From the NCBI GenBank assembly GCA_036488585.1, contig DASXHH010000009.1, forward strand, positions 366-64,365: 64,000 nt of DNA. Direction: 5' to 3'. The notes below the pieces were generated by a model. It saw only the letters and a program-made list of their open reading frames with translations. It was not told the origin of the DNA and made no database searches. Shown here piece by piece: positions 3,141 to 49,701 of this stretch. Origin of the DNA: Candidatus Saccharimonadia bacterium. Its GTDB lineage: Bacteria > Patescibacteriota > Saccharimonadia > UBA4664. Both the position numbers and the translations under genes were made by a program. The number at the start of each line of letters is the position of its first letter. Within the stretch, counting starts at the first letter, position 1.

Positions 3141-3222
3141 TTTTCCAGATATAAAATTTCGAAAACACAAAAGGCGCCCAAACTGGGACTCTTCTTATTT
3201 TTAGATCTAAATTGGTGCGCGA

Positions 3223-3235
3223 GGGGTATTTAGAT
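3223..3235. repeat. 13-nt partial copy (attggtgcgcgag) of the tRNA-Leu 3' end and flank (matches 5097-5109)
   Basis: Short exact match. On its own it could be chance, but it is the third such copy within 1 kb. Confidence 0.4.
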
Positions 3236-4359: not shown

Positions 4360-4360
4360 C

Positions 4361-5035
4361 GTGACTCATCAAAAAGAAATACCAGCGCATCCAAGCGATC
4401 TCCAACCCCGAATTGTCCAAAAAGTATATCAACGGCGCGGTTCATTGTACGCATTTCCGACTCTTGATCCAACCAAGACTGCCCTGGTGGTGGTTGACCT
4501 AGATATGGGAACGGCTCGTGATGCTGCAAATCTGCAGCAGGTGGCCGACAACGTAAACGAGCTGGCGACTGCCTTGCGTGATCACGGTGGAACGGTTGCT
4601 TGGGTGATAACCCCAATCCAGAAACCAACTAAAAACTTCCAGGCGGTATTTGGAACGGCCGCGAGTAAGTTTGAGAATATGGGACGGCCGGGCGGGGCGG
4701 CGCATATGCTATGGCCAGAACTCAACCCACCCACAGACACCGATATACGAACTACCAAGTTGGGTCACAGCGCTTTCTTCCCCGGTAAATGTGATCTGAA
4801 TGAGAGGCTGAAAGCCAAGGGTATAGAGTCAATTTTGATCGTGGGGGCGGTCACCAACGTTTGCTGCGAAGCTTCGGCCCGCGATGCGGCGGAACTAGAT
4901 TACCAAGTCACCCTCATTTCTGACGCGATGGCAGGGCTGCCAGGGCTGATTCAGGGAACGCTCACGACATTTTTTCGTTGGTATGGTGACGTGCGAACCT
5001 CGCAGAACGTCATTCAACTCTTAAGCGAGAGTTGA
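4361..5035 (+). CDS. isochorismatase-family cysteine hydrolase
   Basis: ALVVVDLDMG motif and ILIVGAVTNVCCEASARDA (catalytic Cys region). A GTG start abuts the upstream stop; an ATG at 4268 would create a 92-nt overlap, so the start is ambiguous. Confidence 0.7.
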   Translation: MTHQKEIPAHPSDLQPRIVQKVYQRRGSLYAFPTLDPTKTALVVVDLDMGTARDAANLQQVADNVNELATALRDHGGTVAWVITPIQKPTKNFQAVFGTAASKFENMGRPGGAAHMLWPELNPPTDTDIRTTKLGHSAFFPGKCDLNERLKAKGIESILIVGAVTNVCCEASARDAAELDYQVTLISDAMAGLPGLIQGTLTTFFRWYGDVRTSQNVIQLLSES

Positions 5036-5098
5036 ATGAGAGTGATGGATGAATAAAAGCGAAAAAGACCTCACGAGGTCTTTAAAGCATAAGAACAT

Positions 5099-5184
5099 TG
5101 GTGCGCGAGAGAGGAGTCGAACCTCCACGTCCTTGCGGACACTAGTACCTGAAACTAGCGTGTCTACCATTCCACCACTCGCGC
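5099..5184 (-). tRNA. tRNA-Leu (anticodon CAG), class II with long variable arm, encoded CCA
   Basis: Reverse complement folds as a cloverleaf. Acceptor GCGCGAG/CTCGCGC; D-stem GTG/CAC; anticodon stem CTAGT/ACTAG with loop TTCAGGT (U33, CAG, G37); variable arm GTCC-gcaa-GGAC; T-loop TTCGACT; discriminator A plus CCA. Confidence 0.9.
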
Positions 5185-5236
5185 GGGTGGGCGTTAACTG
5201 GGTTACATTAGCATAATTTGGGGGCCTGGGGAAGAG

Positions 5237-6964: not shown

Positions 6965-6968
6965 GGGC

Positions 6969-7190
6969 TTACTTCTTTGAAAGAATGCTCAAAATTACAG
7001 ACAGAACGAGGATAACGGCCGTGATGATGGTGGCATTAAAAATTACAGCCTCAGCGCCACGACGGGAGCGGTAGTAGCTGGTATCGCCGCCGAAGGCCGC
7101 GCCCAAGCTCTGGCCGCGGGATTGGATGAGGATAAACATTATGGTGAGCAGCGCCGAAATGACGGTAATGATATTAAATATGTTCTTCAT
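6969..7190 (-). CDS. secG: preprotein translocase subunit SecG
   Basis: 73 aa with two TMs and the conserved LIQSRGQ(S/G)LG..FGG motif. Confidence 0.75.
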   Translation of the reverse strand: MKNIFNIITVISALLTIMFILIQSRGQSLGAAFGGDTSYYRSRRGAEAVIFNATIITAVILVLSVILSILSKK

Positions 7191-7542
7191 GCTTGGGCTC
7201 CAGAAGTTCAGTTAGCAGGTAGTTTACGATCCATACCACCACCGTGGCTAGGACTGCGGTCCAAAACGAGCGTAGGTGGAACTTGGGATAGATAACCGTC
7301 ACAAGATAGAGCATGAAGGCATTTATCACAAGGGTGAACAGCCCGAGCGTAAGTACAATGGCCGGTAGCGACAACAGCACCACCAACGGCCGAATGACGG
7401 CGTTGACCACCGAGAAGATGAGCGCAGCCACTACTAGAATGCTGAGCTTGTCGTTGTACTGAATGCTGCCCGTCATTAATTCGGCGGCAGCCCAGAGGCC
7501 GAGGAAGTTGACGAGCCAGCGCAAGATAAATTTGCGGATCAT
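7174..7542 (-). CDS. membrane protein of the phage-holin-4/DUF360 type (YvlD-like), 4 TM
   Basis: MIRKFILRWLVNFLGLWAAAEL... matches the usual N-terminus of this family. Overlaps secG by 17 nt. Confidence 0.55.
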   Translation of the reverse strand: MIRKFILRWLVNFLGLWAAAELMTGSIQYNDKLSILVVAALIFSVVNAVIRPLVVLLSLPAIVLTLGLFTLVINAFMLYLVTVIYPKFHLRSFWTAVLATVVVWIVNYLLTELLEPKHEEHI

Positions 7543-7691
7543 GACCCGACTATGTTAGCACAATTACCGCTTCTTGCGTAGGAGCTTGCCCAGCGAGAAC
7601 ACGCTCGCACCCGTTACCTTCATGCGAGGCGTGCGTTTGCGTTCGCGAGCGGCGGCCCGGCGGATGGCTTTGTCGATGTGATAGCCGCGGC

Positions 7692-8951
7692 TCATGATTT
7701 GGCTGATTTGCTTAATAGCTCTTCGAGCTGATCGGGGTCTGAAGGGATGTCGCGGGAGATAACTTCGCACCCACCGGTGGTGATGAGCAGATCGTCTTCG
7801 AGCCGTACCCCTATCCCCTCTGTTTTTAGGTAGAGGCCGGGCTCGCAGGTGATGACCATGCCGGGCTCGAGTGGGGCTCGGAAATCAGAGTTGTCATGGG
7901 CATCGAGGCCCATTTGATGAGAGATGTGACCGGGATAGTAGTTAAAAAGCGGACCTTTGAGGCCGAGTTTTTTGATTTCTTCGGTGAGGACCTCGCGCAT
8001 ATGGTTGTCGACGCTCACGATGGATTCGCCGGGTTTACAACGGGCGATACCAGCGAGCTGGGCCCGGCGCAGAGCCTCGTAAGTATCGCGCTGGCGCTTG
8101 GTGAATCGACCCGATACAGGGGCGACGCGGCTAATGTCTGAGGCATACCAGCCCATTTCGGCGCCGGTATCGAATAAGACGAGGTCGTGATCGCCGAGCG
8201 GAGCGTCATTTTTCATGTAATGGATGATGGTGGCATTACGGCCGGCGGCTACAATTGGCGTGAAGGCGTGGCCGGTGGCTCCGTGGCGTAGGTATTCGGC
8301 GGTGAGCTCGGCCTCAAGCGCGTATTCGGGCAGCCCCGGCGACATGGCCAACCACGCCCGCTCGAGGCCAGCCTTAGTGGTGGCGACGGCGCGGCGGATT
8401 TGCTCGATTTCGGCCGGGTCTTTAATTTGGCGGTGGTGGTTAAGCTGTGGTAGGGCGGAGCGGAGTTGGTGGAGAGGTGCTCGGCGGCGCAGTTCTCTGG
8501 CTCGGCGAGTAGCGGGCGAGGATTGGTGCGAATCGAGCGATTCGTCGGCATTGAGATAAACAGTGTGGTAACGCTCGAGTAATCGATTGAGCAGACGCGG
8601 CAGGTCCGAGAGCGGCATAACGGTTTTAATGCCAGATAGTTTTTCGGCCTGTCTTGGCGTGAGGCGCTCCCCTTCCCAGGTGCCCACAAAGTCGTTGGTA
8701 CCGCTCACGAACAACAACTGGCGGGCCTCAGGGTTAGAGTGACCGGGTACCAGCACCAGCACCGCCTCAGGTTCAGCGATGCCGGTGAGGTAGTAGAAGT
8801 TGGAGTCGGGGCGGAACGGATACTCGGCATCGGCGCTGCGCATGATTACATCGGACGTATCGATAATGGCGATAGCTTCGGGGCCGATAGCTTCCTCGAG
8901 TTTGGATCGGGCCGCGGCATGGAATTTCGGCGGCAGGGGTTCGTAGCGCAT
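7692..8951 (-). CDS. pepP: Xaa-Pro aminopeptidase (M24B, PepP-like)
   Basis: M24 pita-bread motifs: HGATGHAFTPIVAAG, DLVLFDTGAEMGWYASDISR, GHISHQMGLDAHD, LEDDLLIT. Confidence 0.8.
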   Translation of the reverse strand: MRYEPLPPKFHAAARSKLEEAIGPEAIAIIDTSDVIMRSADAEYPFRPDSNFYYLTGIAEPEAVLVLVPGHSNPEARQLLFVSGTNDFVGTWEGERLTPRQAEKLSGIKTVMPLSDLPRLLNRLLERYHTVYLNADESLDSHQSSPATRRARELRRRAPLHQLRSALPQLNHHRQIKDPAEIEQIRRAVATTKAGLERAWLAMSPGLPEYALEAELTAEYLRHGATGHAFTPIVAAGRNATIIHYMKNDAPLGDHDLVLFDTGAEMGWYASDISRVAPVSGRFTKRQRDTYEALRRAQLAGIARCKPGESIVSVDNHMREVLTEEIKKLGLKGPLFNYYPGHISHQMGLDAHDNSDFRAPLEPGMVITCEPGLYLKTEGIGVRLEDDLLITTGGCEVISRDIPSDPDQLEELLSKSAKS

Positions 8952-37640: not shown

Positions 37641-38309
37641 TTATTCCGTGGGCTCGGAAAGGCCTTGGCTGTGCAGAAACCGTTCGTGAATTTCGAGGGC
37701 CTCGTCGGCAATCTCCTGCGGATCGGAGGCGCCACGGAAGATAAACTTTTCTTCGGCGCCAGCCGATTCAATCTCCACATCGCCGTAATTGAAGATGGTT
37801 CGGGCAATGCCCTTGCGAGTGCCGGTGACGTCCTGAACACGCACGAAGGCTACCTGCGAAATCCGATGGCTAAACAGTCCGTATTGCTCGGCCACTAGCA
37901 GGTGAACGTTAGTAAAGATGAGCACATTGCGCTGATATACGAACAGTCCGATTAGAAAAATAAGGGCCGCCAGCACCAGCAAGATCACCACGAGTGCGAA
38001 AACCATGAGACGCGGGAACGGGATGGTATCCGGGTAGCGTCCCTCGCCAAACGCGAACGCGAGGGCTACCAGTATAAGCAGAACCGATGTGAACAACGTG
38101 GGCAATAGAGTGAGCGGATGACGGTGAATAATTCGGGTGATTTGCTCACCGGGATCTAGATCGAAGCCATAGGGCGTGGGAGTCTCGCCGGGCTCGGGCA
38201 ATTCGCCCGTTTCGGCCGAGTGCCCGACGGTTGGACCCGGCTGCTCGGGGGCCGGTGGCTGGGCTTGAGCCGGCGATTGGTTGGGCGTTGGAATGGGAGT
38301 TTGGTCCAT
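37641..38309 (-). CDS. bacterial PH-domain (bPH_2/YdbT-like) membrane protein
   Basis: Two TMs followed by a PH-like region (VLIFTNVHLLVAEQYGLFSHRISQVAFVRVQDV...IFNYGDVEIES). Confidence 0.6.
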   Translation of the reverse strand: MDQTPIPTPNQSPAQAQPPAPEQPGPTVGHSAETGELPEPGETPTPYGFDLDPGEQITRIIHRHPLTLLPTLFTSVLLILVALAFAFGEGRYPDTIPFPRLMVFALVVILLVLAALIFLIGLFVYQRNVLIFTNVHLLVAEQYGLFSHRISQVAFVRVQDVTGTRKGIARTIFNYGDVEIESAGAEEKFIFRGASDPQEIADEALEIHERFLHSQGLSEPTE

Positions 38310-38324
38310 GGTAAAGCTATTATA

Positions 38325-39491
38325 CTACCCGACTTTGCCGAAGCCAGATGCCATTAAATTGAGTATCACCAGGGTGAGGCCGGAGAGCTGAGCGGCGGCG
38401 AACAGGCGGTAACGGGGGCTACGCCAGCGCGACAGACCCTTGCGCCATACCACCATGTGTGTGGCCGCGTACACGACGAGCAGCAGCAATAGCAGCATGA
38501 GCGTGGCCTGGGTATTCCAGCTGAGGGTGGCCACAACGGATAGTGGACGGAACAGACTATAGGCCTGAGGCTTGGGAGCCAAGGTGCCCGCTGGCGCCGG
38601 CGAGATTTCGCCGCTCACGACCGGCGGCGTGCCGATAGGCGTGGGCACTGGAGTGGGCGTAGGAACCGGGGTCGACACTGGAGTGGAGGCGGGGGTGGAG
38701 GCGGCGGCCACAGTGGGTCGTGGGGTGGTGGCCGGTGCTGGTGCTGCGGCCACCGGCTGGGCGGCTGTGGCGCCATAATGCGCCACCACCAACGTGGTCG
38801 GCTCGTTGGCCTGGGCTACTGGTGCGGTGCAGGTGGGCGTGGTGTAAGCCGAGCTGCCGCTCGAGGGAATGCTGTCGTAGGGCGACTGGCCGTTTTCCAC
38901 CGCGAAGCCGACGTCGGTATAGTGAGGATTGAGGATGTTGGCGCGGTGGCCGGGCGAATTCATCCAGCCATCCATCACGCCCTGGGCGGTGTCGAAGTCT
39001 TTAGCCAGGTTTTCGCCAGCGTAGGTGTAGTTGTAGCCAGCCAGCGTAAACCAGTGCCAGGGTTGGACGCAGGCCGGGCTGACATGGTTCCAGTAGTCGT
39101 TTGCGAACATGTCTTGGGCCTTCATGGAGGCGGAATTGTTAAGTCGCGCGTCCATGCGCAGAGCGGGCAAGCCACCTGCGGCGCGCTGTTGGTTGGTGAG
39201 ATCGAGCAGCTGGGTGGGCGTGATGCTGCCGGTGGCGTAGGACAGCACGTTACCGCCATTGGTGCTGCCGGCACCTTTCACTATAGGGGTCGGGGCGGAA
39301 TGGTGGATGGCCGTCGCCAGCGCGGAGGCTTGCAACCCGACGATTAGCACGGCCATCAGGGCCAGGCCGGGCAGACGGATCAAGTGGGGGCGATGGTCGT
39401 TGTGGGTATGCGGTACCAACCAGCGCTTGGCGTGACGCGCGAGGTGGTGATGCAACCGAACGGGTTGAGTTTTGCGCTTAGGTGTTCGCAT
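38325..39491 (-). CDS. secreted CAP/SCP/PR-1 domain protein with PT-rich linker and C-terminal TM segments
   Basis: CAP motifs (LLDLTNQQRAAGGLPAL; GENLA; GHRANILNPHYTDVGFAV). Low-complexity PVPTPTPVPTP linker. Confidence 0.7.
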   Translation of the reverse strand: MRTPKRKTQPVRLHHHLARHAKRWLVPHTHNDHRPHLIRLPGLALMAVLIVGLQASALATAIHHSAPTPIVKGAGSTNGGNVLSYATGSITPTQLLDLTNQQRAAGGLPALRMDARLNNSASMKAQDMFANDYWNHVSPACVQPWHWFTLAGYNYTYAGENLAKDFDTAQGVMDGWMNSPGHRANILNPHYTDVGFAVENGQSPYDSIPSSGSSAYTTPTCTAPVAQANEPTTLVVAHYGATAAQPVAAAPAPATTPRPTVAAASTPASTPVSTPVPTPTPVPTPIGTPPVVSGEISPAPAGTLAPKPQAYSLFRPLSVVATLSWNTQATLMLLLLLLVVYAATHMVVWRKGLSRWRSPRYRLFAAAQLSGLTLVILNLMASGFGKVG

Positions 39492-39545
39492 AAAATGCCT
39501 ACGTTAATTGTACACAGTCTTTTTGCTGAGGTGTACCATGAGATC

Positions 39546-40268
39546 ATGGAAGTTCTTACGGTTAAGAAGTTATACAAACAGTACGGGCGGGCCGAAGCCG
39601 CTCGCGACATCAGTTTTTCAGTCGCAGAGGGTGAAATATTTTCGCTGGTGGGCCCTAACGGTGCAGGCAAATCAACCACTTTGCGTATGATCGCAACGAT
39701 CCTGCGGCCGACTGCGGGTGAGATTAAGATTGCTGGGCACGATGTACAGCAGGAGTCCGGGAAGGTCCGTGAATTAATTACCTACTTGCCAGAGGAATCG
39801 GGAGCATACAAAGCGCTAACAGGCCGGGCTTACCTTAAATTCATGGCAGGTCTGTATAGTACCGATGCGGCGAAGCAGCATGAGTACGTGCACAAAGCCG
39901 AAGAAATCACCGACTTGGGCGAGAAGTTAGATACCAAGATCGGCACTTACAGCAAGGGCATGACGCGTAAGCTACTGCTGGCCAGGGCCATGATGACTGC
40001 TCCGAGACTGGCGATACTGGATGAGCCGACCAGCGGGTTGGACGTGCTCAACTCGCTGGAGATCCGCAAATTGATCCGGCGGTTGGCCGAGCACGGCACA
40101 GCGGTACTGCTGTCGAGCCACAATATGCTCGAAATTGAATATTTATCCGACCGGATAGGCCTGATCGTGAGCGGACAACTAAAGGAAGTGGGGACGGCTG
40201 AGGCGCTCAAGTCTAAGCACAAGGCCCGGAACCTGGAAGAGGTATTTTTGAAGGTGGCACAGGCATGA
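39546..40268 (+). CDS. ABC transporter ATP-binding protein (ABC-2/NatA-like)
   Basis: Walker A GPNGAGKST, signature YSKGMTRK, Walker B LAILDEPTSGLD, H-loop. Confidence 0.9.
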   Translation: MEVLTVKKLYKQYGRAEAARDISFSVAEGEIFSLVGPNGAGKSTTLRMIATILRPTAGEIKIAGHDVQQESGKVRELITYLPEESGAYKALTGRAYLKFMAGLYSTDAAKQHEYVHKAEEITDLGEKLDTKIGTYSKGMTRKLLLARAMMTAPRLAILDEPTSGLDVLNSLEIRKLIRRLAEHGTAVLLSSHNMLEIEYLSDRIGLIVSGQLKEVGTAEALKSKHKARNLEEVFLKVAQA

Positions 40269-41527
40269 AACGATTTATGGTGCTGCTGGGCAAAGAGTTG
40301 CGGGAACTCCTGACACCGCAGACGATTTTGCCGATAGTGCTGGTAATTTTGGCCTTCATCGGACTGGGCAAGGTTCTTTCCCAACAGAGCAAGGTGGCGA
40401 GCAAACCCCAGCCGGTGCTGGTGGTGGACCACGATAGCACACCAGCCTCAGCGGCAGTGGCGAAGCTACTGAAGGCGAGCAACTTTGATGTGACCCAGCA
40501 AGCCAGCGACCCGGATTTCAGTCAGAACATTGCCCAAAAAGCGGTGGTAGTGATTCCGGCGGGTTTTGGACGCGACCTGGCTGCCGGCAAGCAGACCACC
40601 CTCGAGACTTACACGGTGCAGAGTGGGTTTTCGCTGGCCAAGATAGCCAACGCCACCCTCCTGACCGGCTTAACAGCCCAACTAAATACTGCCTTGGCAG
40701 CAAGCCGGATAGCGCAAATCGCACCCCGTCTGGACCCGACCAAGGTGCTGGCGCCAGTAAAGAACGACGAGCACATAGTGGCAAATGGCAAAGTGGCGAA
40801 TATTAGCCCCGACAAAATTGCCGCCTATTTGGGCTCCCAGATCACCTTCGTGCCGGTGATACTATTCATTGTGATCGTATTTGCCGGCCAAATGGTGGCT
40901 ACGGCCATGGCGAACGAGAAAGAGAATAAGACGCTGGAGACGCTGCTGTCGCTACCGATTTCGCGGACCACGATTGTCGGGGCAAAAATGCTGGCAGCCG
41001 CCATTGTGGCCGGCGCGACGGCCGTGGCCTACATTTATGGTCTTCATAGTCTGCAGTCGTCTTTCACCGGCGGCGTGGCAGTGGACGATGCCACCAAGGC
41101 GGCGGCAAGCCAGTTGGGGCTGACCCTCTCGACCAGCAGCTATGTAATGCTAGGTGTAGCTTTGTTTCTTGGGATACTGGCGGCTTTGGCGATCGCGCTG
41201 GTGCTCGGAGCATTCGCCGATAACATCAAGAGCATCCAGGCGCTAATTATGCCGCTGCTACTGCTACTATTAGTGCCGTACCTCGCAACGATGGCGACCG
41301 ACATCCAGACACTGCCTGGCTGGTTCAGGGGCGTGCTTTATGTGATTCCCTTCACCTACACCTTCCAGGCCATGCCCAACTTGTACCTCCACAACTATGG
41401 CTTGGTAGCCCTTGGCAGCCTGTATGAGTTGGTGTTTTTCATAGTGTTTATGGTAATAGCGGGGCGACTGTTCGCTTCCGACCGGCTACTAACGCTGCGT
41501 CCGGGCAGCTTGTTTTCGAGGAAATAA
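40265..41527 (+). CDS. ABC-2 family transporter permease
   Basis: N-terminal TM, large extracytoplasmic loop, and 5 C-terminal TMs. Overlaps the ATPase gene by 4 nt (ATGA). Confidence 0.8.
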   Translation: MKRFMVLLGKELRELLTPQTILPIVLVILAFIGLGKVLSQQSKVASKPQPVLVVDHDSTPASAAVAKLLKASNFDVTQQASDPDFSQNIAQKAVVVIPAGFGRDLAAGKQTTLETYTVQSGFSLAKIANATLLTGLTAQLNTALAASRIAQIAPRLDPTKVLAPVKNDEHIVANGKVANISPDKIAAYLGSQITFVPVILFIVIVFAGQMVATAMANEKENKTLETLLSLPISRTTIVGAKMLAAAIVAGATAVAYIYGLHSLQSSFTGGVAVDDATKAAASQLGLTLSTSSYVMLGVALFLGILAALAIALVLGAFADNIKSIQALIMPLLLLLLVPYLATMATDIQTLPGWFRGVLYVIPFTYTFQAMPNLYLHNYGLVALGSLYELVFFIVFMVIAGRLFASDRLLTLRPGSLFSRK

Positions 41528-41532: not shown

Positions 41533-43209
41533 CTACTGGCCGGCTTGAGGCGTAACCTCAGCTAGGGCCTGAGCCATCGTGAGGTTGGCGAGGCCGGCGT
41601 TGTGAACGGTAGTCATTTCGGTGGTGAAGTCGGCGGGCGTGGTGTTGTACTCGCCGGCTGCGGGATCGGTGCTGACCTGGTGGTAAACCAAGATGAGCCA
41701 GGTATGATCGGCCGCCGCCTGGTTGATCCAGGCTTGGACCTGGGCCGGAGTGGTGGTGTTGGTGATGTTTTGGACCCGCAACCGGTAGATGTCGAGGTCG
41801 TCTTTCGAGTTGTAACCGGGATCGGTGGTACGCTGTGAGGCGTAATACTGCTGAATCGCGGCGACGGTGCGGTTGTCGTAGGTGCCGTAGGGCGAGGCGA
41901 AATCGGTGACGGGACTACCAAGAACGCTCTGGAGCTTAGTTTGGCTGTTTTTGAGCTCGTTGGTCAGCCGAGTGGCCCCAAGTGTGGTGAGATCGGGGTG
42001 AGTGACCGTGTGTGAGCCAATCTCCATGCCGGCGGCCTTTAGAGCCTTCACCTGGGCCGCAGTCATATAGTCGGGCTGAGAGGTGAGGTTTCCAGAAATG
42101 ATGTAGAAGGTGCCATGTAGGCCGTTTTGCTGCAGGATGGGCAAGGCATTAGTGTACTGATTAGTAAAACCATCGTCGAGGGTGACAGTGACAAGGCCGC
42201 GACTGAAGCCAGTGGGATGGTACTGCGACATGGCATAGTCGTCGGTTTGGAGCCAGCCGTTGGAGTAGAGCAGGTGCATCACCGAGGCGGAGACGGCGCC
42301 GGCGGGCATGTCGTACTCAAGACGCTCCTTGGTCCAGCCCACGGTCTTTAAAGCTGAGCCCATGTAGAGATACTGGGTAGAGCCATCTTGCATGGTAACG
42401 GCGATGTCGACTTCGGTGGCCACATTGGATTGGTACCAGTCGGTGAAGAGGTAATGGCCGCCGGCGACTACGGGTTGGGGCTGGTACATCCAGTTGGCGG
42501 TGCCGCTCTGGTAATTCGACAGTGTGACCTTGAGGCTATGGGTGCCGGTGTGGCCGGAATTCAAATAGGCAAAAGCGTGGGTATTGGTGCCCCAGACAGT
42601 CTTTGTCCAAGAGTTGGGCTGACCGCCTGTGTTGGCTTCGACCGAGGGGTTGGGTACGCCGGAGGCAACTGCAGAACTGGCGTTGGTGAGCGAGAAGTTG
42701 TCGGTGGCGAGGGTGCCGTTGGCCGCAATTAGATGGAAAATTGTAATGAATTTGGCGTTCGCTGGGGCGGTGAAGTTGGCACTCACCTGCTGCCAGCTGG
42801 AACTCGCAGGCACGGTTTGGAGATCGAGATAGGTGTAATTGCCGGAGCCGTCATCGGACTGCACAACCACCGAGGTGCCAACGGTAGCGTGGTAGTAGTC
42901 GCTAAAAGCGTACTGCTGGCTACCGCTGACCGCCACCGGGGTGAAGTACCACTTAGCGTCTCCGCTCTGGTAGCCGGACATGGTAATACCGAGGGCGTGC
43001 GAGCCGTCCTGGGCGCCGGACGCTAGGTAGCTAAAAGTGGCCGTGCCGGTGCCCCATTGGCCTTGGCTCCAGCCCGTGGGCTGACCGGCCGAGGCGGTTT
43101 CGGCCGAGGGGTTAGCGATGATATTGGTGGAGGCAGATGCAGGGTTAATTGGCAACAACAAACTAACCGCCAGCAGTCCAGCCGCCGTGATGCGCGAAAA
43201 CAGTTTCAA
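41533..43209 (-). CDS. secreted polysaccharide deacetylase (CE4/NodB domain) with two N-terminal CBM-like beta-sandwich repeats
   Basis: NodB motifs VTVTLDDGF, HGTFYIISG and IGSHTVTHPDLT. Two ~140-aa repeats each ending in ...TDDY/TDNF. Signal peptide. TTG start preceded by AAAGGAAG. Confidence 0.8.
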   Translation of the reverse strand: MKLFSRITAAGLLAVSLLLPINPASASTNIIANPSAETASAGQPTGWSQGQWGTGTATFSYLASGAQDGSHALGITMSGYQSGDAKWYFTPVAVSGSQQYAFSDYYHATVGTSVVVQSDDGSGNYTYLDLQTVPASSSWQQVSANFTAPANAKFITIFHLIAANGTLATDNFSLTNASSAVASGVPNPSVEANTGGQPNSWTKTVWGTNTHAFAYLNSGHTGTHSLKVTLSNYQSGTANWMYQPQPVVAGGHYLFTDWYQSNVATEVDIAVTMQDGSTQYLYMGSALKTVGWTKERLEYDMPAGAVSASVMHLLYSNGWLQTDDYAMSQYHPTGFSRGLVTVTLDDGFTNQYTNALPILQQNGLHGTFYIISGNLTSQPDYMTAAQVKALKAAGMEIGSHTVTHPDLTTLGATRLTNELKNSQTKLQSVLGSPVTDFASPYGTYDNRTVAAIQQYYASQRTTDPGYNSKDDLDIYRLRVQNITNTTTPAQVQAWINQAAADHTWLILVYHQVSTDPAAGEYNTTPADFTTEMTTVHNAGLANLTMAQALAEVTPQAGQ

Positions 43210-43279
43210 CCTGCTTCCTTTCAGTTATTTAGATATGAAGACGCGGGGGCTGACCCCCGGTAAATAAGGCGACTCTGGC

Positions 43280-43387
43280 TTAGTGTAGCCCTGCCCAAAG
43301 CAAAAACTGTCTGCCAGTGAATACAAACTGGTAGATCAATAATGCAGCGAGAACAGCTACGCCAATCCAGGTGATCCAGCGCTGCAT
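43280..43387 (-). CDS. 35-aa single-TM peptide (MQRWITWIGVAVLAALLIYQFVFTGRQFLLWAGLH)
   Basis: Its ATG lies 4 nt after the stop of the upstream peptide gene, in operon orientation. There is no SD of its own, so it may be coupled to the upstream gene or spurious. Confidence 0.25.
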   Translation of the reverse strand: MQRWITWIGVAVLAALLIYQFVFTGRQFLLWAGLH

Positions 43388-43391
43388 GGTA

Positions 43392-43571
43392 TTAGCGCTT
43401 AAACATTGCCTGGGCCATGTATACAACTGCCCAAGTCGCAAGACCAGCGGCAGCAGCGACAGCCACGTGGGTAGCCGAGCTCATACCGGTCTGGGGCAAA
43501 ACAGTGGTACAGGCAGCGGCGGCGCCACCGGCGATGGTGCAGGAACCTAGAACTTGTCCGTTTCCGTACAT
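43392..43571 (-). CDS. 59-aa peptide with LPQTG + hydrophobic segment + KR tail (cell-wall sorting-signal-like), Cys/Thr/Gly-rich N-terminus
   Basis: GAAAGGAAAG Shine-Dalgarno 4 nt upstream of the ATG. Sits between the GT2 and CE4 genes on the same strand. MYGNGQVLGSCTIAGGAAAACTTV-LPQTG-MSSATHVAVAAAAGLATWAVVYMAQAMF-KR. Confidence 0.45.
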   Translation of the reverse strand: MYGNGQVLGSCTIAGGAAAACTTVLPQTGMSSATHVAVAAAAGLATWAVVYMAQAMFKR

Positions 43572-43585
43572 TGCTTTCCTTTCAG

Positions 43586-44671
43586 TTAATTATTACTTAC
43601 CGCTTCAGTCGCGATGCGGTATCGGCGCCCAGCGGTGCTCCAGCCTGGTGTGGCCGAGCGGAATTTGTGCTGGACGACGATTTCGTACCACGCCCTGAAG
43701 AAGGCAAACAGGTTTACAAATCGCAGGATGTAGAAGAACGGGAAGCCGGAAATCACGTCGGCGCGGTTGTTAACGCCGGCAGCCCAGACGGTGATGCCAA
43801 AGAAGATAGTGAGGTCAGTAAGGAACATGAGCGAGACGGGGCCATAATTTTGCCCCCACCAGGCCAGAAATGGCAGGATGGTGATCTCGGCCAACAGGAT
43901 GAGCTCTTCGGCTACCATCCACAACATATAGCCGTCGACGCGGTGAGGCCGCAGACCGATTTTGTGGCGCAACATAACCTGCCAGGCGCCACGATACCAG
44001 CGCATCACCTGTTTGAAGTAGTCACTGAAGTCCTTGGGATCTTGGGTGAAGGCTTTGGCTTGCGGGATGAAGGCGATCTTGCCGAGTTTCTTGCGGTGAA
44101 TCTGGATGGTGAGGTCCATATCCTCGGTCAGGGATTCGGAATTGAAGTCGAGGTGCTCCAGGATGTCGGTGCGATAAATGCAGGTGGCGCCGGGAATGAC
44201 AGGGATGGCGCCGATGGCGGCCTGAATGCGGCGCATCACCTCAAGGCCAAGCGTGTACTCGAAGGTGCGGTATTTGGAGATCCAGCCGGCCTTGATGCTC
44301 TGGAGATGTCCGGTGGCGGCACAGTATTTGGTGGACAGGCGATTGGTAAGCTCGGCAAAGTAGTTTGGACCAAAGACGCCGTCGGCGTCAGCGATGTGGA
44401 CCCACTCGTAACGATCGGCGATACCGAAGTACTTCAAGCCGCTGAGAATGGCAACGCCCTTGCCGCTTTGGGGCTGCTGAATTACGTGGCCGTCGTCAAG
44501 CATTAGATATGCCAGATCGACGGTCCAGTCGGTGGAGCCGTCGGAGACCAAGAAGATGTCCTCGCGAGGTTGGCCAGCATCAAGAGCCGAGCGAATGGTG
44601 TCGGCGACCACCATCTGCTCGTTGTGGGCTGGAATCAGCAAAGCAAGTTTTCGCTTAGGACTGCGATCCAT
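43586..44671 (-). CDS. processive family-2 glycosyltransferase (PgaC/IcaA/NodC/cellulose-synthase-like)
   Basis: DAD (HIADADGV), TED (SLTEDMDLT) and QxxRW (QVMRWYRG) motifs, with C-terminal TM helices. Confidence 0.85.
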   Translation of the reverse strand: MDRSPKRKLALLIPAHNEQMVVADTIRSALDAGQPREDIFLVSDGSTDWTVDLAYLMLDDGHVIQQPQSGKGVAILSGLKYFGIADRYEWVHIADADGVFGPNYFAELTNRLSTKYCAATGHLQSIKAGWISKYRTFEYTLGLEVMRRIQAAIGAIPVIPGATCIYRTDILEHLDFNSESLTEDMDLTIQIHRKKLGKIAFIPQAKAFTQDPKDFSDYFKQVMRWYRGAWQVMLRHKIGLRPHRVDGYMLWMVAEELILLAEITILPFLAWWGQNYGPVSLMFLTDLTIFFGITVWAAGVNNRADVISGFPFFYILRFVNLFAFFRAWYEIVVQHKFRSATPGWSTAGRRYRIATEAVSNN

Positions 44672-44734
44672 TGCTACACCCTTTCGTGTGATGAAACATC
44701 ATACCGAAATTTGGTCATTTTGTCAAAGCCTACT

Positions 44735-46123
44735 TTAATGCTTAAGCTGTGGTTGGAGTTCTGCATAAGCGTCGTGTACAGTCTTCACCGAAATGCCGGA
44801 CGCGACGACTTTTTGCATGTCGTGAGCAAAGTCGACGTTGTTGCGAGAGAAGGGCGAGCCGGAGGTGTCGACCTGGTGGTACACGAGGATCAGCCAGGCA
44901 TGGTTGGCCTTGGCGGCGTCGAGCCAGCCCTGCAGTTGCTGAGGAGTAGTGTTAACGCTCATATTTACAACCTTGAGCTCGTAAGGGTTGAAGTGGTCGG
45001 CGGTGTTGAGGCCAGTGTCGGTGGAGCGGGCGGTTTGGTAGAGGCCCTTGATAGCGGTTGTGGTACGGACGTTATAGGTGCCATACGGGGCAGCGAAGTC
45101 GGTAGCGGGGTTGTAGCATTTGCTAATAGCGTTGTGCGGAATCGTCAGTTCAGTCCCCAGCTGTTTGTCATTTTGCTTGGTGAGATCGGGGTGAGTGAGG
45201 GTGTGAGATGCGATTTCGTGGCCGGCATTGCGGAAGTCGTAGATATCGCTGGCGGTTTCATAGCCCTTAGTGCCCAGAATGCCGGTCACGATGTACTGCG
45301 TGGAGACCACCCCGTACTGCTTCATGATCGGCAGGGCGTTGGCGTGGGCGCTCTCCCAGCCGTCGTCGAAGGTGATCGAAACCAGCGGCTGCTTAAACTG
45401 GGCTGACGGTGTGGCGGCCTGCAAGGAGTAATCGTCGGTCTCGAGGGCGCCGGCTCGGTCGAGGGTGTGAGATACCATGGCCTGATGCACGTTGCCAGGA
45501 ACGGCAAAGCGCACCGTGTACTGGGTCCAGTTGGTGGAGGACGGAATGGTGCCGAGGCTGTAGTAGCGCTGGTTACCCTGGTCGTCCTTGAACTGGAGGG
45601 TGACATGGGTGGTGACGTTGGAGCGGTAATAATCGCTGAACTGATAGTAGCCGTTTGGCTGGACGCTCGTGAGACCAGTGAACCAGTCGGCAGTACCGTC
45701 CTTGAAGTCGGTGATGTCAATGCGCAGCGCGCGACCGGAGTCGTGGCCCAATACTTGGGTAAACCTGGCATTGTTGTTGCCGGTGTGGTTGTTGTACCAA
45801 CTGGTGGGATTGCCGGCGCTAAGGGTTTCGACGCCGGGGTTCGGGATCAGGTTGGGGCCAGAGGTGGTGACCGGCTGCTGGATGGTGAGCGCGGTGTCGG
45901 ACTCAGAGTCGGTGGCTTGTGACGAGTTGGCGGCGCTGGGAGCATCGGCCACTAAGGCGCCAGGTGCGTTGGTACGGCCCAGGAAGGCGCCGGCTCGGCA
46001 GCGACTCTCATTAATCATCTGGACCGGGTTAACGCCGGCATAACCGACCTGAAACGATCCAAAGCCGCCGATAATTGCGGCAGCGACAAATATGACAATG
46101 CGCTTAGAGAAATGTATGGCCAT
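44735..46123 (-). CDS. secreted polysaccharide deacetylase (CE4/NodB) with one N-terminal CBM-like domain
   Basis: VSITFDDGWESAHANALPIM, HEIASHTLTHPDLT, signal peptide. Confidence 0.8.
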   Translation of the reverse strand: MAIHFSKRIVIFVAAAIIGGFGSFQVGYAGVNPVQMINESRCRAGAFLGRTNAPGALVADAPSAANSSQATDSESDTALTIQQPVTTSGPNLIPNPGVETLSAGNPTSWYNNHTGNNNARFTQVLGHDSGRALRIDITDFKDGTADWFTGLTSVQPNGYYQFSDYYRSNVTTHVTLQFKDDQGNQRYYSLGTIPSSTNWTQYTVRFAVPGNVHQAMVSHTLDRAGALETDDYSLQAATPSAQFKQPLVSITFDDGWESAHANALPIMKQYGVVSTQYIVTGILGTKGYETASDIYDFRNAGHEIASHTLTHPDLTKQNDKQLGTELTIPHNAISKCYNPATDFAAPYGTYNVRTTTAIKGLYQTARSTDTGLNTADHFNPYELKVVNMSVNTTPQQLQGWLDAAKANHAWLILVYHQVDTSGSPFSRNNVDFAHDMQKVVASGISVKTVHDAYAELQPQLKH

Positions 46124-46237
46124 GGTTCATAATCACAAAAGGATTAATCACCATACATTTTATCTGGTGTTTTGTCAACTGCGGCTACGTACTATTTGGG
46201 GCTTGGGAGCACGTAGCCCGCTCTTTTAGAAGCTTGT

Positions 46238-46882
46238 CTACTGGCAGCGGTGGTATTCAAGGGAAATGCGGAAACTGACCGGCTGGGTGAGCTTGGGCGT
46301 TTTGGCAATGAAATAGCGGTTGGTGGCAGTATTGGCAACAGGACAGGTCACAGTGGGAACGGTGAGCGTAGCGTCGACGGTAGTACCGGCGGAGCTGGCG
46401 ATGACGCCGGTGACCTTGAGACCGTAACCGTTGGTGAGCTCGCGGCCACTGGAGAGAGAAACGATGTCGGAGGAGTTAAAGTCGACCGGCAGGATGGGCG
46501 GAATCGAGGGCAGGCCGCTGTGTACTTGGTCCCAATACTGCTGCCAGGCGGCCTGAGTAGTGATAACTTCCTGGCGCTTGGGATAGTTGCCGCCGCTATC
46601 TCCTTCTACCATGAGTTCGAACGGCAAAGTTTGGCCGGCGGGCTCCGTTGGCGTCGTGATGGCATCGCCCAGGAAGGCGCGATGGCCGTCGCTGCAGGCG
46701 GGCGGATTGGTGTCGGTAACGATATAGCCTGCCTGGGTACACTGCGCGAACGAGGTGATGGGCGGCGCCATGCGGCCGCGAAACGCCCAGGATGCCAGCG
46801 CCGACACCACGAATAGGCCTAAGATGGCACCTCCGGCGAGGATTTGTTGACGGCGGCTAAGCGTTCGCAGAGTGATGGCCAC
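46238..46882 (-). CDS. hypothetical N-terminally anchored extracytoplasmic protein (214 aa)
   Basis: One TM (ILAGGAILGLFVVSALASWAF). No confident family assignment. Confidence 0.5.
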   Translation of the reverse strand: MAITLRTLSRRQQILAGGAILGLFVVSALASWAFRGRMAPPITSFAQCTQAGYIVTDTNPPACSDGHRAFLGDAITTPTEPAGQTLPFELMVEGDSGGNYPKRQEVITTQAAWQQYWDQVHSGLPSIPPILPVDFNSSDIVSLSSGRELTNGYGLKVTGVIASSAGTTVDATLTVPTVTCPVANTATNRYFIAKTPKLTQPVSFRISLEYHRCQ

Positions 46883-46884
46883 GA

Positions 46885-47481
46885 TTATAGCTCTTTGGTG
46901 AGGTCCGGCAGTTTACGGTTTTTTTCTTCTATGAGGTCGATGAGGTCGTCGACGAGCGCAGCGGGATCGTGATTGAAAATAATGCCGGTGCGGGCGCGCT
47001 TGGCGGATTTAAGCACGCGCTCGACCTCCTCGGTCATGCCACCGGAGCCGAGCAACACCCCAATGGGTTTGCGCTCCTCGATGGCGATGGTGAGCTCGTT
47101 TAAGGTGCCGATGCGGCCACCCACCATCACCACGGCGTCGGAGCTGCGCACGAGCAGCAGGTTGCGGCCAGTGTACTCGAAACCGGTAAAGAGGATGGTG
47201 TCGAAGGCGTCGACCGGTAGCTGGTATTTTTTGACGTGGGCAATACGACTAGCTGCCGGCGAGAAGCCGATGGAGCTGACGGTGTCGGGTGCGGCCTCTT
47301 TGGCGGCCACGGCGGCATAGTACGGCAGGCCGCGGGTGGCGCCGGAGATCACGAGGTGGCCGCGCCGCACTATTTCGCGGGCAGCCTCGGCGGCCAATTG
47401 CTTGCCCATCTCAATGCTCGGCCCGCGGGCGGCACCAGACACGCAGATCTGGTAGCGAATTTTACTAGCTTTCTGGGTCAC
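46885..47481 (-). CDS. LOG-family / TIGR00725-like Rossmann-fold nucleotide-binding protein
   Basis: ICVSGAARG, VISGATRGLPYYAA and VVMVGGRIGTLNELT motifs of the LOG/YvdD/SLOG superfamily. GTG start overlaps the upstream stop by 1 nt. Confidence 0.7.
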   Translation of the reverse strand: MTQKASKIRYQICVSGAARGPSIEMGKQLAAEAAREIVRRGHLVISGATRGLPYYAAVAAKEAAPDTVSSIGFSPAASRIAHVKKYQLPVDAFDTILFTGFEYTGRNLLLVRSSDAVVMVGGRIGTLNELTIAIEERKPIGVLLGSGGMTEEVERVLKSAKRARTGIIFNHDPAALVDDLIDLIEEKNRKLPDLTKEL

Positions 47482-48725
47482 TATTTAGACCTCACCAGGA
47501 CTTCGGGCTTAATGACGGCATTATCGAGCTTTTCGAGCAATTGCTCCTCGAGCACCTTCTCGCCCATGTAGCGGGCAAATACCTCGTTCCAGAGCGATTC
47601 GCGGAAGTGGTAGAGGTAACGGTCTTGATATGACACAGCGTTGGAGTAACCGAAGCTAAGGTCAAACAGGTTGAAGGTGACGGTGTCGTGGGCGGGACCC
47701 TTAAGGACGGCCACGTAGTCCATGCCTTGCCAGAAATCTAGCTCAGGGTCAATCTCGTACAGCACCTCTTCGGCCCGGCGCCAATGTAGGTCTTCGGGTT
47801 GAAGGTGGGGCTCAAAGATTTCCGGGTGCTTTTCGTTCGTAAGCTTGCCGAAGTAGCGCTGAATGACACGCCAGTGAATACGGGTGGTGTCGGCGATTTT
47901 AACGTGAGCGGGGTCGGCGATGAGCGTGTCGGAAACAATGGCACCAAAATTCTTCTTGGCTTGCATGAGCTTAAAGAACGAACTGTAGAGGCGCACCTCG
48001 TTGAAGTAATGGCACAGCAGCGGGAGAACTTTGAGGGTAATGCCAGGCATATGGGTTTCGACCATGGGCATAACGGCGATGGCGCCCATTTCCTTGGAAT
48101 GCGTGATGTTATGGCGCTTCTTGGCAATGAAGTGCTCAGCGATATCGCCCCACTTTTCAACCGCGAACGGTACTACCTTAATGGGCCGGGTCTCAAAGTC
48201 CGTGGGCTCGAGGTCGAGATAGAGGCGATCGAAGTCGTTAAGCCAGGCGGGGTCTTCGGCGAAACGCAGGGCCAGGATAAGTTCGTAGATGTTTTCCTGT
48301 TCGAGTAGCCGTGACACCAGATGGTAACCGAGGCGTTCCATAATAGCCATGGGCGGCATGTGGCGCAGCATCTCGCGAGCCTTGTCTTCTTTCAGGAACC
48401 AACCGGACTTAGGTAACGGGGCGGCTTCAGCGGCTTTCACGATGAGCGGGATCATCTCGCGCAGATCGGTGGGGTCAGTGCCGCCAATGGAGCGGGCGGC
48501 GTGGTCATCGTCGGCGGCCACCTTTTTAATGAGGGCATCGTAGAGCTCGGGGCCGGTGGCATCTGGGCCGAGGCCGAGCCGTTTGGCGTGCGAGGCAGCT
48601 TTTTCGGTGATTTCAGCGGTGAGCTTGGCATCAACCCCTTTTTGGTGCGTTAAGAGTTCTAGCTGGTGAAGCGCATGATCGAATAGCGGTTCCTTGGCTT
48701 GTAGAAATCGTCCCAGATTAGACAT
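47481..48725 (-). CDS. hypothetical protein (~414 aa), no recognisable domain, translationally coupled between PfkB kinase and LOG-family genes
   Basis: Good GGAGG Shine-Dalgarno 6 nt before ATG 48725. Overlaps both neighbours. Confidence 0.6.
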   Translation of the reverse strand: MSNLGRFLQAKEPLFDHALHQLELLTHQKGVDAKLTAEITEKAASHAKRLGLGPDATGPELYDALIKKVAADDDHAARSIGGTDPTDLREMIPLIVKAAEAAPLPKSGWFLKEDKAREMLRHMPPMAIMERLGYHLVSRLLEQENIYELILALRFAEDPAWLNDFDRLYLDLEPTDFETRPIKVVPFAVEKWGDIAEHFIAKKRHNITHSKEMGAIAVMPMVETHMPGITLKVLPLLCHYFNEVRLYSSFFKLMQAKKNFGAIVSDTLIADPAHVKIADTTRIHWRVIQRYFGKLTNEKHPEIFEPHLQPEDLHWRRAEEVLYEIDPELDFWQGMDYVAVLKGPAHDTVTFNLFDLSFGYSNAVSYQDRYLYHFRESLWNEVFARYMGEKVLEEQLLEKLDNAVIKPEVLVRSK

Positions 48726-49701
48726 TACCAACCTCCGTTACCTTAAGCTTCATGCGTTTGATGCGCCCCGTCTTGAGAATACCGGTCTTGGCGCCCATTT
48801 GGGCCACCACGCTCGAGGCGTTGGCGCTGGCGAGCGACAGAGCGTCTTCGATGGGTAGACCCTTGGACAGTGCGGCCACGAATCCAGAGCCAAAGGCATC
48901 ACCGGCGCCGGTGCGATCCACCACCTTCACCTTCTGGTACTGACCAGCTTGGTAGAGCTTACCGTCCGCTGAGGCGTAGGAGCCGGACGCGCCATTGGTG
49001 CCGACCACATAGGGGCAGGTGTCGGCAGCGCGGAGCACGGTGTCTTTGAGGTTGTCGCCACCAAACAGAGTGGCAAGCTCCTCGGCATTGGCCTTGAGCA
49101 CGGTAACGAGAGGAAGCAGGGCGCGCAGTTTCTTGGCTTGGGCGAGTTCACCGTTGCCGGGGTCGAGAGCCACTTGGATGCCACGATTGTTGGCGTGTTT
49201 GAGCAGACGCCCGAGCAAATCTAGGTTGCCGGCCAACGAGGTAATGTAAAACCAATCGGCCTCGAGGGTGCGGATCGCGATGTCGCGAGCGCCGAGAGCG
49301 TGGGAGGGGCCTCGATAGACCAGCACGGTGCGTTCACCGGTGGGCGCCACCAACAGGACCGAGAAACCGGTGTTTAGGCGCGGGTCGTAGACAATGCGAT
49401 CGGTCGACACACCCTCTCGACGCAGCGCACGCACCACTTCCCCGCCCGCTGGGTCGTGGCCGATTTTACCGATATAGCCGGCCTCAAGACCTTGGCGGGC
49501 GAAGGTGACGGCTGCATTGGTGGCGCCGCCGCCAGTGTCGAAGTAGACATTATCGAGCTCGAGCTTGGCGCCGAGCGGGAATTGTTCAACGTAATCCCGG
49601 GTGCGAACATCGCGCCGGGCATGGAGCGCCTTGCCGGTCAGGAAGACATCCTGAGTGGCGGCGCCAAATGTGAGAATTTTGACATTCACCTCTGCCATCA
49701 C
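48718..49701 (-). CDS. PfkB-family carbohydrate/nucleoside kinase (ribokinase-like)
   Basis: DTGGGATNAAV (substrate-binding GG) and the C-terminal DRTGAGDAFGSGFVAAL ATP/anion-hole motif. Confidence 0.85.
   Translation of the reverse strand: MMAEVNVKILTFGAATQDVFLTGKALHARRDVRTRDYVEQFPLGAKLELDNVYFDTGGGATNAAVTFARQGLEAGYIGKIGHDPAGGEVVRALRREGVSTDRIVYDPRLNTGFSVLLVAPTGERTVLVYRGPSHALGARDIAIRTLEADWFYITSLAGNLDLLGRLLKHANNRGIQVALDPGNGELAQAKKLRALLPLVTVLKANAEELATLFGGDNLKDTVLRAADTCPYVVGTNGASGSYASADGKLYQAGQYQKVKVVDRTGAGDAFGSGFVAALSKGLPIEDALSLASANASSVVAQMGAKTGILKTGRIKRMKLKVTEVGNV

Follow-up and report, generated by a model that had tools for sequence, protein, structure and literature searches.

The window, that is, the whole 64,000-nucleotide stretch of contig DASXHH010000009.1 (Candidatus Saccharimonadia bacterium) that was analysed, contains on its minus strand an open reading frame (ORF) of 59 amino acids that encodes a cargo-less LPXTG mini-protein, which is the subject of this work. 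Its gene is located between the gene of a family 2 glycosyltransferase (GT2) synthase of the processive type and a 35-aa ORF with a single transmembrane (TM) helix, and this group is flanked by the genes of two carbohydrate esterase family 4 (CE4) polysaccharide deacetylases, A and B (Table 1). The mini-protein reads MYGNGQVLGSCTIAGGAAAACTTV-LPQTG-MSSATH-VAVAAAAGLATWAVVYMAQAMF-KR, so that an uncharged head of 24 residues is followed by the sorting pentapeptide, 6 spacer residues, a TM helix and the basic tail KR. The identical peptide HEY2004003.1 is publicly annotated as 'LPXTG cell wall anchor domain-containing protein' on a 157.6-kb metagenome-assembled genome (MAG) contig of Candidatus Saccharimonadia.

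An earlier note on this DNA had described a complete sorting-signal architecture devoid of signal peptide and mature domain, and this description has been borne out. The peptide (ORF 43392-43571) scores 17.7 bits with the LPXTG_anchor model TIGR01167, above the curated cut-off of 15.9 bits. A longer form or a hidden signal peptide is impossible, since 6 codons ahead of its ATG the frame is already closed. Inspection gave neither a Sec signal peptide nor a secreted passenger domain, with 24 residues before the motif and no basic n-region. As judged from its sequence, the product has what defines an LPXTG sorting signal and lacks the signal peptide and passenger of a canonical substrate. No Pfam family was found in the 59-mer at E<=0.01, and the NCBIfam matches were TIGR01167 and a spurious weak one. 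A single TM helix (residues 35-53) exceeds the hydropathy threshold, and the AlphaFold2 (AF2) model of the 59-mer shows a TM helix at residues 31-57 with block-mean predicted local distance difference test (pLDDT) values of 72-85. The gene is preceded by a strong Shine-Dalgarno (SD) sequence (GAAAGGAA, 5 nt before the ATG) and followed 4 nt later by the 35-aa single-TM ORF, both as the earlier note had stated.

Table 1. Coordinates of the mini-protein gene and of the surrounding features in the window.
Feature	Position	Strand	Remarks
Gene of the 59-aa cargo-less LPXTG mini-protein	43392-43571	-	ATG start; NCBI HEY2004003.1
Mini-protein, head (residues 1-24)	43500-43571	-	
Mini-protein, LPQTG	43485-43499	-	
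Mini-protein, spacer, TM helix and KR tail	43395-43484	-	
Mini-protein, stop codon	43392-43394	-	
35-aa single-TM ORF	43280-43387	-	ATG 4 nt after the TAA stop of the peptide gene
GT2 processive-type synthase, 361 aa	43586-44671	-	HEY2004004.1; Pfam Glyco_tranf_2_3, 4.9e-22
Sigma-70-like promoter, near-consensus, upstream of the GT2 gene	44698-44726	-	TTGACA-17-TATGAT; 11/12 positions
CE4 polysaccharide deacetylase A, 462 aa	44735-46123	-	N-terminal TM or signal, CBM_4_9-like region, Polysacc_deac_1
CE4 polysaccharide deacetylase B, secreted, 558 aa	41533-43209	-	Signal peptide, CBM_4_9-like region, Polysacc_deac_1
13-mer TAACTGAAAGGAA, copy 1	43576-43588	-	TAA stop of the GT2 gene plus SD (GAAAGGA) of the peptide gene
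13-mer TAACTGAAAGGAA, copy 2	43215-43227	-	SD region of deacetylase B (TTG at 43209)
GC-rich hairpin CGGGGG-UCAG-CCCCCG	43241-43261	-	After the 35-aa ORF

A profile search has retrieved 76 clusters of the peptide family at 90% identity; 75 of them are 50-65 aa long, and in the remaining one the start was called further upstream, giving 95 aa. When 1.84 billion representative proteins were scanned exhaustively with HMMER (E<=1e-3), 116 family representatives at 50% identity were obtained, among which 113 are proteins of 32-92 aa matching from residue 1 and 3 are long matches due to repeat-protein noise, and a metagenome scan with the peptide profile gave at least 5 loci. The motif takes the form [LMI]PxTG in 73 of the 76 clusters and LPxTG in 90 of 106 family members. 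Its third position is free (Q 24, V 15, L 11, N 6, and also A, S, R, D, F and M) and its P and G are invariant, a pattern that holds across more than 170 diverged family sequences. The motif Gly is followed by 29-31 residues, made up of a spacer of about 7 residues and the TM helix, and the last 9 residues include 1-4 K/R and no D/E. The N-terminus is MY in 61 of the 76 clusters (MYGQG in 21), the others beginning with sequences of the M-x-x-PGKGG type. The mean best-window hydropathy (15 residues) is 2.08 for the TM helix and 1.36 for the head.

The TM helix is unusually conserved, with the signature AxAxxAGLxxW[AG]xxY. Counted from the invariant Trp (171/171), the conserved positions are A at -10 (165/171), G at -4 (142/171), L at -3 (161/171), A or G at +1 (167/171) and Y at +4 (168/171). 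This signature is absent from canonical LPXTG proteins and from the mini-LPXTG peptides of a second kind that are described below, and a helical-moment test on conservation was not significant for a single conserved face of the helix (p = 0.25). For the 34 codons that begin with LPxTG, dN/dS has a median of 0.28, with dS saturated. The 59-aa ORF is a genuine conserved gene under purifying selection.

The genomic context was analysed in loci (L001-L028) sampled in two independent ways, from orthologues of the GT2 synthase and from members of the peptide family. A GT2 orthologue (43-68% identity) lies within about 1.5 kb of the peptide gene in every locus with enough flanking sequence, namely the window, L001-3, L005, L006, L011, L013, L014, L016-21 and L023-28, and the usual distance from the GT2 stop codon to the peptide ATG is 14-20 nt. 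Genes of CE4 deacetylases share in this linkage in the loci with enough flank. Three arrangements were found. Type I is deacetylase A-GT2-peptide-(35 aa)-deacetylase B (window, L001-3, L011/12, L014/15, L016, L019, L020, L023, L024 and L026-28); type II is peptide-TM-anchored deacetylase-GT2 followed by a convergent sortase gene (L006, L013, L018 and L021, with L025 cut at the GT2 gene); and type III is GT2, a gap and the peptide (L005 and L017). Locus L027 carries two tandem deacetylase-GT2-peptide modules (394-3229 and 5460-8177) whose synthases are 59% identical, and each module retains its own diverged mini-LPXTG peptide (LPRTG and IPATG).

A sortase gene is present inside the cluster in one clade (L006, 7062-7772, minus strand; L013, 10299-11006, minus strand; L018, 5320-6012, minus strand; and L021), and in L007, a contig that ends just upstream of the GT2 gene, the order GT2-deacetylase B-sortase was found, with the sortase gene at 3576-4238 on the plus strand. 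The cluster sortases pass the cut-off of the general model TIGR01076 and of none of the models for classes A-F or GN, and the Pfam Sortase domain was confirmed for the L007 protein. As a separate observation, in the L007 sortase the linker that follows the N-terminal TM helix contains ..PGTSTTTAALPQTG.., and the sortases of L013, L018 and L006 end in ..VLPT, ..VLPGKN and ..TLPGN, respectively; to judge by their sequence, these LP-type motifs could be self-substrate or pseudo-substrate motifs.

The 35-aa ORF also has homologues in the type I loci (L001, 3836-; L003, 3362-; L011, 8177-8287; L014; L016; L019, 8183-8293; L020; and L024). They are 33-36 aa long, with the pattern M[KQ]R..G........Y[HQ]...[TS][GSA], and in 9 of 11 type I loci they start between -1 and +4 nt from the stop codon of the peptide gene, typically as TAAnnATG, an arrangement that points to translational coupling of this ORF to the peptide gene. 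The exact 35-aa sequence of the window was not found in a collection of 15 billion proteins, and it is hence unannotated.

The synthase shows the signatures of processive enzymes (DGSTD, DAD, TED and QxxRW, here QVMRW). Its best NCBIfam match is PgaC_IcaA (9.9e-27), with 94 bits against an equivalog cut-off of 422, so that it is only PgaC/IcaA-like, and a search of the PDB gave no sequence match to a solved structure. Residues 7-258 align to positions 45-297 of the 407 of the PgaC_IcaA profile, and the matches to NodC, EpsU and the XrtG-associated GT2 family (TIGR03111) begin at profile positions 36-53. The hydropathy plot gave three TM helices, all in the C-terminal part, with the N-terminus free of them, and the start codon does not appear to be mis-called because a near-consensus promoter is located directly upstream. 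The synthase seems, on this basis, to be short of TM helices relative to its kin, a shortfall that is judged against the topology of PgaC, NodC and BcsA; the mini-protein and the 35-aa protein would have one TM helix each to add.

These features bring in the main rival explanation, which is that both small proteins are unprocessed membrane subunits supplying TM helices to a 3-TM synthase in the manner of IcaD/PgaD, and that LPxTG is a relic or a turn that is never cleaved. The missing N-terminal TM segment, which the related profiles include, and the TM helix of the peptide, in which conservation is highest and includes specific W, Y and G-L residues, suggest a partner role for this helix, and the tight translational coupling to the GT2 gene, the co-duplication of peptide and synthase and the lack of a nearby sortase in most loci, which have the gene order of the window, would be natural for a subunit. 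However, a mere turn gives no reason for a motif with a free x and invariant P and G in more than 170 sequences, which fits sortase recognition, and four orthologous clusters contain a sortase gene, with a fifth one after GT2-deacetylase B; motif conservation and clustered sortases are hard to explain in this way. The earlier note had proposed an IcaD/PgaD-like synthase partner, an identity without sequence support: there is no similarity to the IcaD/PgaD families, no Pfam family at E<=0.01, and one TM helix instead of two. The resemblance consists of a small membrane protein beside a PgaC/IcaA-like GT2 enzyme that apparently lacks TM helices, and the differences, in addition to the absence of sequence similarity and the single confident TM helix, are the sortase motif and a position downstream of the GT2 gene alongside a second, 35-aa TM protein. 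The subunit explanation is considered unlikely, although it is the most serious of the alternatives.

The head of the family members has 17-29 residues, with 65% A/G/V/T, 0-1 K/R and hardly any D/E. The description of the head as rich in Cys and Thr holds for the window copy (2 Cys and 4 Thr in 24 residues) and not for the family, in which Cys is found in only about 10-15% of the members. The number of Cys residues is none in 66 of the 76 clusters, one in none of them and two in 10; in a further 98 representatives it is none in 88, one in 2 and two in 8, the one identifiable single-Cys head of these two being the atypical P0146, with Cys at residue 2. The Cys pairs have a variable spacing of 5-10 residues and are scattered over several subclades, and the positions of Thr are not conserved. 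Since Cys occurs in pairs or not at all, as in disulfide-forming segments, the head would be located outside the cytoplasm; paired Cys suggests a disulfide and thereby an extracytoplasmic head.

This composition also bears on the proposal of a precursor similar to ribosomally synthesized and post-translationally modified peptides (RiPPs), with a Cys/Thr-rich head that is enzymatically modified, as with thioether rings, and then released. The 2 Cys and 4 Thr of the window head agree with it; nevertheless, Cys is absent in about 85-90% of the members, Thr positions vary, the spacing of 5-10 residues between Cys numbering 0 or 2 is a better fit to a disulfide, and no dehydratase, cyclase, radical-SAM enzyme or leader peptidase was found in about 20 contexts. 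The RiPP-like reading of the earlier note has not been sustained and is regarded as very improbable. Features of pilins were likewise not found in the window peptide, whose 24-aa head has neither a CnaB/CnaA domain nor Lys, and any K/R is present in the head of only 40 of 76 members.

The family hidden Markov model (HMM) also matches the C-terminal 55 residues, approximately, of two canonical LPXTG proteins (L014, 9855-10400, plus strand; L011, 11241-11777, plus strand). Both have about 180 aa and a normal signal peptide and are encoded a few genes from the module, and therefore genomes with the gene order of the window carry classical sortase substrates. Their C-termini read ..TPGKGNADTQGKVLAATTAPVAVTAAKT-LPATG-..TM..KRRSRA or a near variant, and the segment PG[KQ]G...(K/Q)VL...TT...V-LPxTG in these proteins corresponds to an entire mini-protein head. 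Because of this homology, the head would correspond to a part that is located outside the cell in the canonical proteins. The alignment argues that the mini-protein is a sorting module which in a Saccharibacterial surface protein forms the C-terminus and which is here encoded by a separate gene, and it looks to have arisen in evolution from the C-terminal end of an LPXTG protein. The bodies of the two canonical proteins are charged, H/D/K-rich low-complexity sequences with repeated CD(R/H)K motifs, possibly metal-binding.

The same homology to the C-terminal ~55 aa of 180-aa proteins could be read as a sign that the ORF is what decay has left of the 3' end of a longer LPXTG gene, or that it arose by chance. 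Against decay, the frame is closed upstream, 113 of the 116 representatives are mini-proteins matching from residue 1, the start (MY 61/76) and the SD are conserved, the dN/dS value is the low one given above, and the position next to the GT2 gene is kept across a divergence of the synthases down to 43% identity. The orthologues are not mostly frameshifted, a possibility that the earlier note had raised. As a description of the present state, the decayed gene that it had listed among its readings is refuted by more than 100 diverged clusters that keep the size of 50-65 aa, the position and the motif, and a remnant or a chance ORF is extremely improbable.

Among the readings offered in the earlier note, a minimal sortase-processed peptide is the best supported one, and the [LMI]PxTG motif with its free x, the clustered sortases and the homology to canonical C-termini argue for it. 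The explanation that we favour, with moderate confidence, is that the mini-protein is a stand-alone sortase sorting signal serving as a dedicated accessory of a Saccharibacterial exopolysaccharide module composed of a PgaC/IcaA-like GT2 synthase and CE4 deacetylases. Its topology, its cleavage, the acceptor and any role in tethering the polysaccharide are aspects that we infer from sequence comparison.

The mechanism proposed for the stand-alone sorting signal would proceed as follows. The synthase, the peptide and the 35-aa TM protein would be transcribed together and translated in close coupling. The peptide would then be inserted into the membrane without a signal peptide, with the N-terminus out and the C-terminus in, its neutral head and basic tail being the driving features; this topology is proposed because of the short neutral head and basic tail, the paired Cys residues and the homology to an extracellular segment. 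The Pf3 coat protein is the model for the insertion of a short uncharged N-tail, and it resembles the mini-protein in being a short protein with a near-uncharged short N-tail, one TM helix and a basic C-terminus, an analogy that may be drawn for topology only. The conserved helix (AxAxxAGLxxW[AG]xxY) would pack against the 3-TM synthase, and a sortase would cut between Thr and Gly and pass the A/G/V/T-rich head of about 26 residues to an amine of a wall precursor. As an outcome, the synthase or its de-N-acetylated polymer would be coupled to the cell wall. For a wall-linked 26-mer, tethering of the product or the machinery of the synthase to the wall would be the most economical idea.

Several points weigh against this explanation. 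In the 64-kb window, neither a sortase gene nor another LPXTG ORF was found by regular expressions (TLxTC/LPXTG), tblastn or a six-frame search with an HMM built from 4 cluster sortases, and in one locus with a GT2 orthologue (L004, GT2-deacetylase A) the peptide is absent within 6 kb. Conservation is highest in the C-terminal part, the fragment that sortase cleavage would discard, which is the opposite of ordinary substrates. Export of the head depends on the assumed N-tail route, given the absence of a signal peptide, and the AF2 model of the head, which is drawn as a helix with a pLDDT of about 53, is of low confidence and uninformative. It is not obvious what a 26-residue head anchored in a thick wall would do on its own, and no enzyme joining the polysaccharide to the peptide was identified.

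The conservation of the part that remains after cleavage would be expected if the peptide were a regulatory device, which reports or titrates the supply of sortase or wall precursors, with the uncleaved peptide or the C-terminal fragment (GM.SA..-TM-KR) switching synthesis on the GT2 enzyme. This fragment has a fixed length of 29-31 aa, the peptide has no cargo and it is paired one to one with the synthase, and intramembrane sensing of sortase-cleaved C-peptides occurs in streptococci as an analogue. Nevertheless, sensor kinases or proteases are not consistently linked in the examined loci, and a pure cleavage switch would have no need of a head that is constrained in composition and homologous to canonical pre-LPXTG segments. 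A regulatory role is accordingly judged quite improbable.

A further possibility, regarded as rather improbable, is that the mini-protein is the covalent link between polysaccharide and wall or is itself a building block, for which three chemistries are possible. First, the amine of glucosamine generated by the adjacent CE4 enzymes could resolve the sortase-LPXT thioester to give a peptide-polysaccharide conjugate. Second, the Thr-rich head could prime the polymer in the cytoplasm and be threaded out through the channel of the synthase, with the sortase then fixing the conjugate to peptidoglycan; export in the absence of a signal peptide would therefore be explained. Third, the sortase could join the 26-residue heads head-to-tail, or through the Lys of PGKG, into a minimal fibre. 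If any conjugate or fibre chemistry of this kind were true, it would represent a new use of sortase and a new anchoring of a synthase-dependent exopolysaccharide in a Gram-positive-type envelope, with possible relevance to host adhesion of episymbiotic Saccharibacteria.

In relation to known systems, the mini-protein shares with the canonical LPXTG signals described by TIGR01167 the pentapeptide, the short spacer, the hydrophobic helix, the basic tail and a score above the cut-off. It differs from them in that the whole protein is a sorting module, without signal peptide or passenger, in that its TM helix is conserved whereas theirs is degenerate, and in its linkage to a GT2 gene. The closest concept, as an analogy and not as membership, is the PEP-CTERM/exosortase (EpsH) system described by Haft, in which exopolysaccharide loci are genomically associated with a C-terminal sorting signal together with its transpeptidase (PMC1569441), and here too a sorting signal stands at such a locus. 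Weak matches link the synthase and the deacetylases of the window to the GT2 families associated with XrtG and XrtP and to the deacetylase family of the XrtA system (TIGR03111, NF053846 and TIGR03006). On the other hand, PEP-CTERM systems are distinguished by the PEP motif, a polytopic exosortase rather than a sortase, their occurrence in outer-membrane bacteria and proteins that generally have signal peptides.

Dedicated sortase-target pairs are exemplified by the class GN 'marine' sortase with a single LPXTG target (NCBIfam). Similarly, the small clusters of L006, L013, L018 and L021 each encode a sortase with one LPXTG substrate, although here the target has no passenger, the cluster is centred on a synthase and a deacetylase, and the sortases fit no class model. 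Precedents for a glycan and a sortase-anchored protein acting jointly at a Gram-positive-type surface are GspA of Actinomyces oris, an LPXTG protein that is glycosylated and then anchored to the wall by a sortase, and the chaplin fimbriae of Streptomyces, which are tied to sortase-anchored chaplins and to a cellulose-like glycan produced by the GT2 synthase CslA. Signal peptides and domains that are folded or amyloid distinguish those proteins from the mini-protein, and neither a LytR-CpsA-Psr (LCP) ligase nor a chaplin domain is found in these clusters.

Bacteria of the candidate phyla radiation (CPR) are known to be rich in sortases (PMC6744442). A full-text literature search on sortases and LPXTG proteins of Saccharibacteria/Patescibacteria, on the combination of sortase, deacetylase and glycosyltransferase, on signal-less LPXTG proteins and on glucosamine as nucleophile found no description of the peptide family or of a sortase-synthase module.

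Ordinary sortase substrates are secreted proteins with a C-terminal signal that is discarded, and in the present family the signal is the whole gene product. Within an uncultivated phylum, such a cargo-less signal is kept in more than 100 sequence clusters, and in every examined locus with enough flanking sequence its gene stands beside that of a processive polysaccharide synthase, which suggests a functional coupling of sortase chemistry to a synthase-dependent polysaccharide of the poly-N-acetylglucosamine (PNAG)/chitin type. The finding touches on how monoderm bacteria covalently retain polymers of this kind, given that these are not built on lipid carriers usable by LCP ligases. Saccharibacteria are obligate epibionts, and a surface polymer together with its anchoring may matter for attachment to the host. 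From a practical point of view, the family offers a natural sortase substrate of very small size (about 55 aa), which comes with dedicated sortases that are unclassified and lends itself to work with synthetic peptides. The family also reveals an annotation gap, as public records give its members no name beyond 'LPXTG cell wall anchor domain-containing protein' or 'hypothetical' and the coupled 35-aa gene is unannotated.

The earlier note had also reported a duplicated 13-nt initiation element upstream of the peptide gene and of deacetylase B, attributing it to functional constraint. Two exact copies of TAACTGAAAGGAA are indeed present in the window, against 0.02 expected from shuffles, with the first one starting at 43576 and not at 43575. 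In orthologous loci the sequence before the peptide gene is TAAC-GAAAGGA (L001, L011 and L019) or TAATCGAAAGGA (L014), and that before deacetylase B is TAAATAACAAAGG (L016), TCTCGAAAGGA (L014), CTCAAAGGAA (L019) or CCAAGGAGG (L011), so that the element is not conserved as a 13-mer. What is conserved, from this comparison, appears to be a strong SD, the full 13-nt identity being lineage-specific. Since the orthologues differ before the deacetylase gene, ordinary SD constraint suffices to explain the repeat, and nothing beyond a stop codon and an SD is left of it; the 13-mer has consequently been rejected as a special element. A search of Rfam at E<=1 over 43100-46400 gave no match, so that no riboswitch or leader lies behind the 13-mer.

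The placement of the peptide gene in an exopolysaccharide operon, which the earlier note had also claimed, holds as regards its GT2 and CE4 neighbours, but the GT2, peptide and 35-aa genes appear to be a transcription unit of their own, and not simply the middle part of one long operon, as judged from the promoter before the GT2 gene and the hairpin after the 35-aa ORF (Table 1). From its sequence, this hairpin is possibly a weak terminator or attenuator between the 35-aa ORF and deacetylase B. Similar hairpins were found at the matching position in L003, L011 and L014; a simple terminator scan did not call the one in the window, and a fold of 43200-43300 gave a z-score of 0.2, with no significant local RNA structure beyond the small hairpin. 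A promoter-like site (TTGACA-17-TATGGT, 46150-46178, minus strand) precedes deacetylase A, and several orthologous loci show TTGACA..TATAAT before this gene, with very short leaders. The best named matches of the deacetylases are of the HfsH, PdaB and NodB types, and the TTG start of deacetylase B is confirmed by an orthologue in which the corresponding codon is an ATG start.

The second kind of mini-LPXTG peptide, which lacks GLxxW..Y in its TM helix, was found beside a distantly related GT2 enzyme (GT2b), which is Glyco_transf_21/chitin-synthase-2-like and about 26% identical to the synthase of the window. In L028 it is encoded at 5038-5214 (minus strand), immediately upstream of GT2b (3743-4915, minus strand), and a search for homologues of this peptide returned the query alone. 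In L026 it lies at about 3800-3982 (plus strand), immediately before GT2b (4055-5398), where the gene caller gave a 29-aa ORF in another frame. No mini-LPXTG peptide was found upstream of GT2b in four other loci (L008-L010 and L019).

The wider neighbourhood of the module recurs in L011, L014, L019, L027 and L028, with genes for a PfkB kinase, a 416-aa protein of unknown function, a SLOG/LDcluster4 protein and a PrcB_C-like protein on one side and for a CAP-domain protein and a bPH_2 protein on the other. The corresponding stretches of the window are 37641-39491 and 46238-49701, both on the minus strand. The window differs by the insertion of an ABC-2 transporter pair (39384-41527, plus strand) between deacetylase B and the CAP gene, and the sole Rfam match in the window at the gathering threshold is a tRNA (5102-5184, minus strand).

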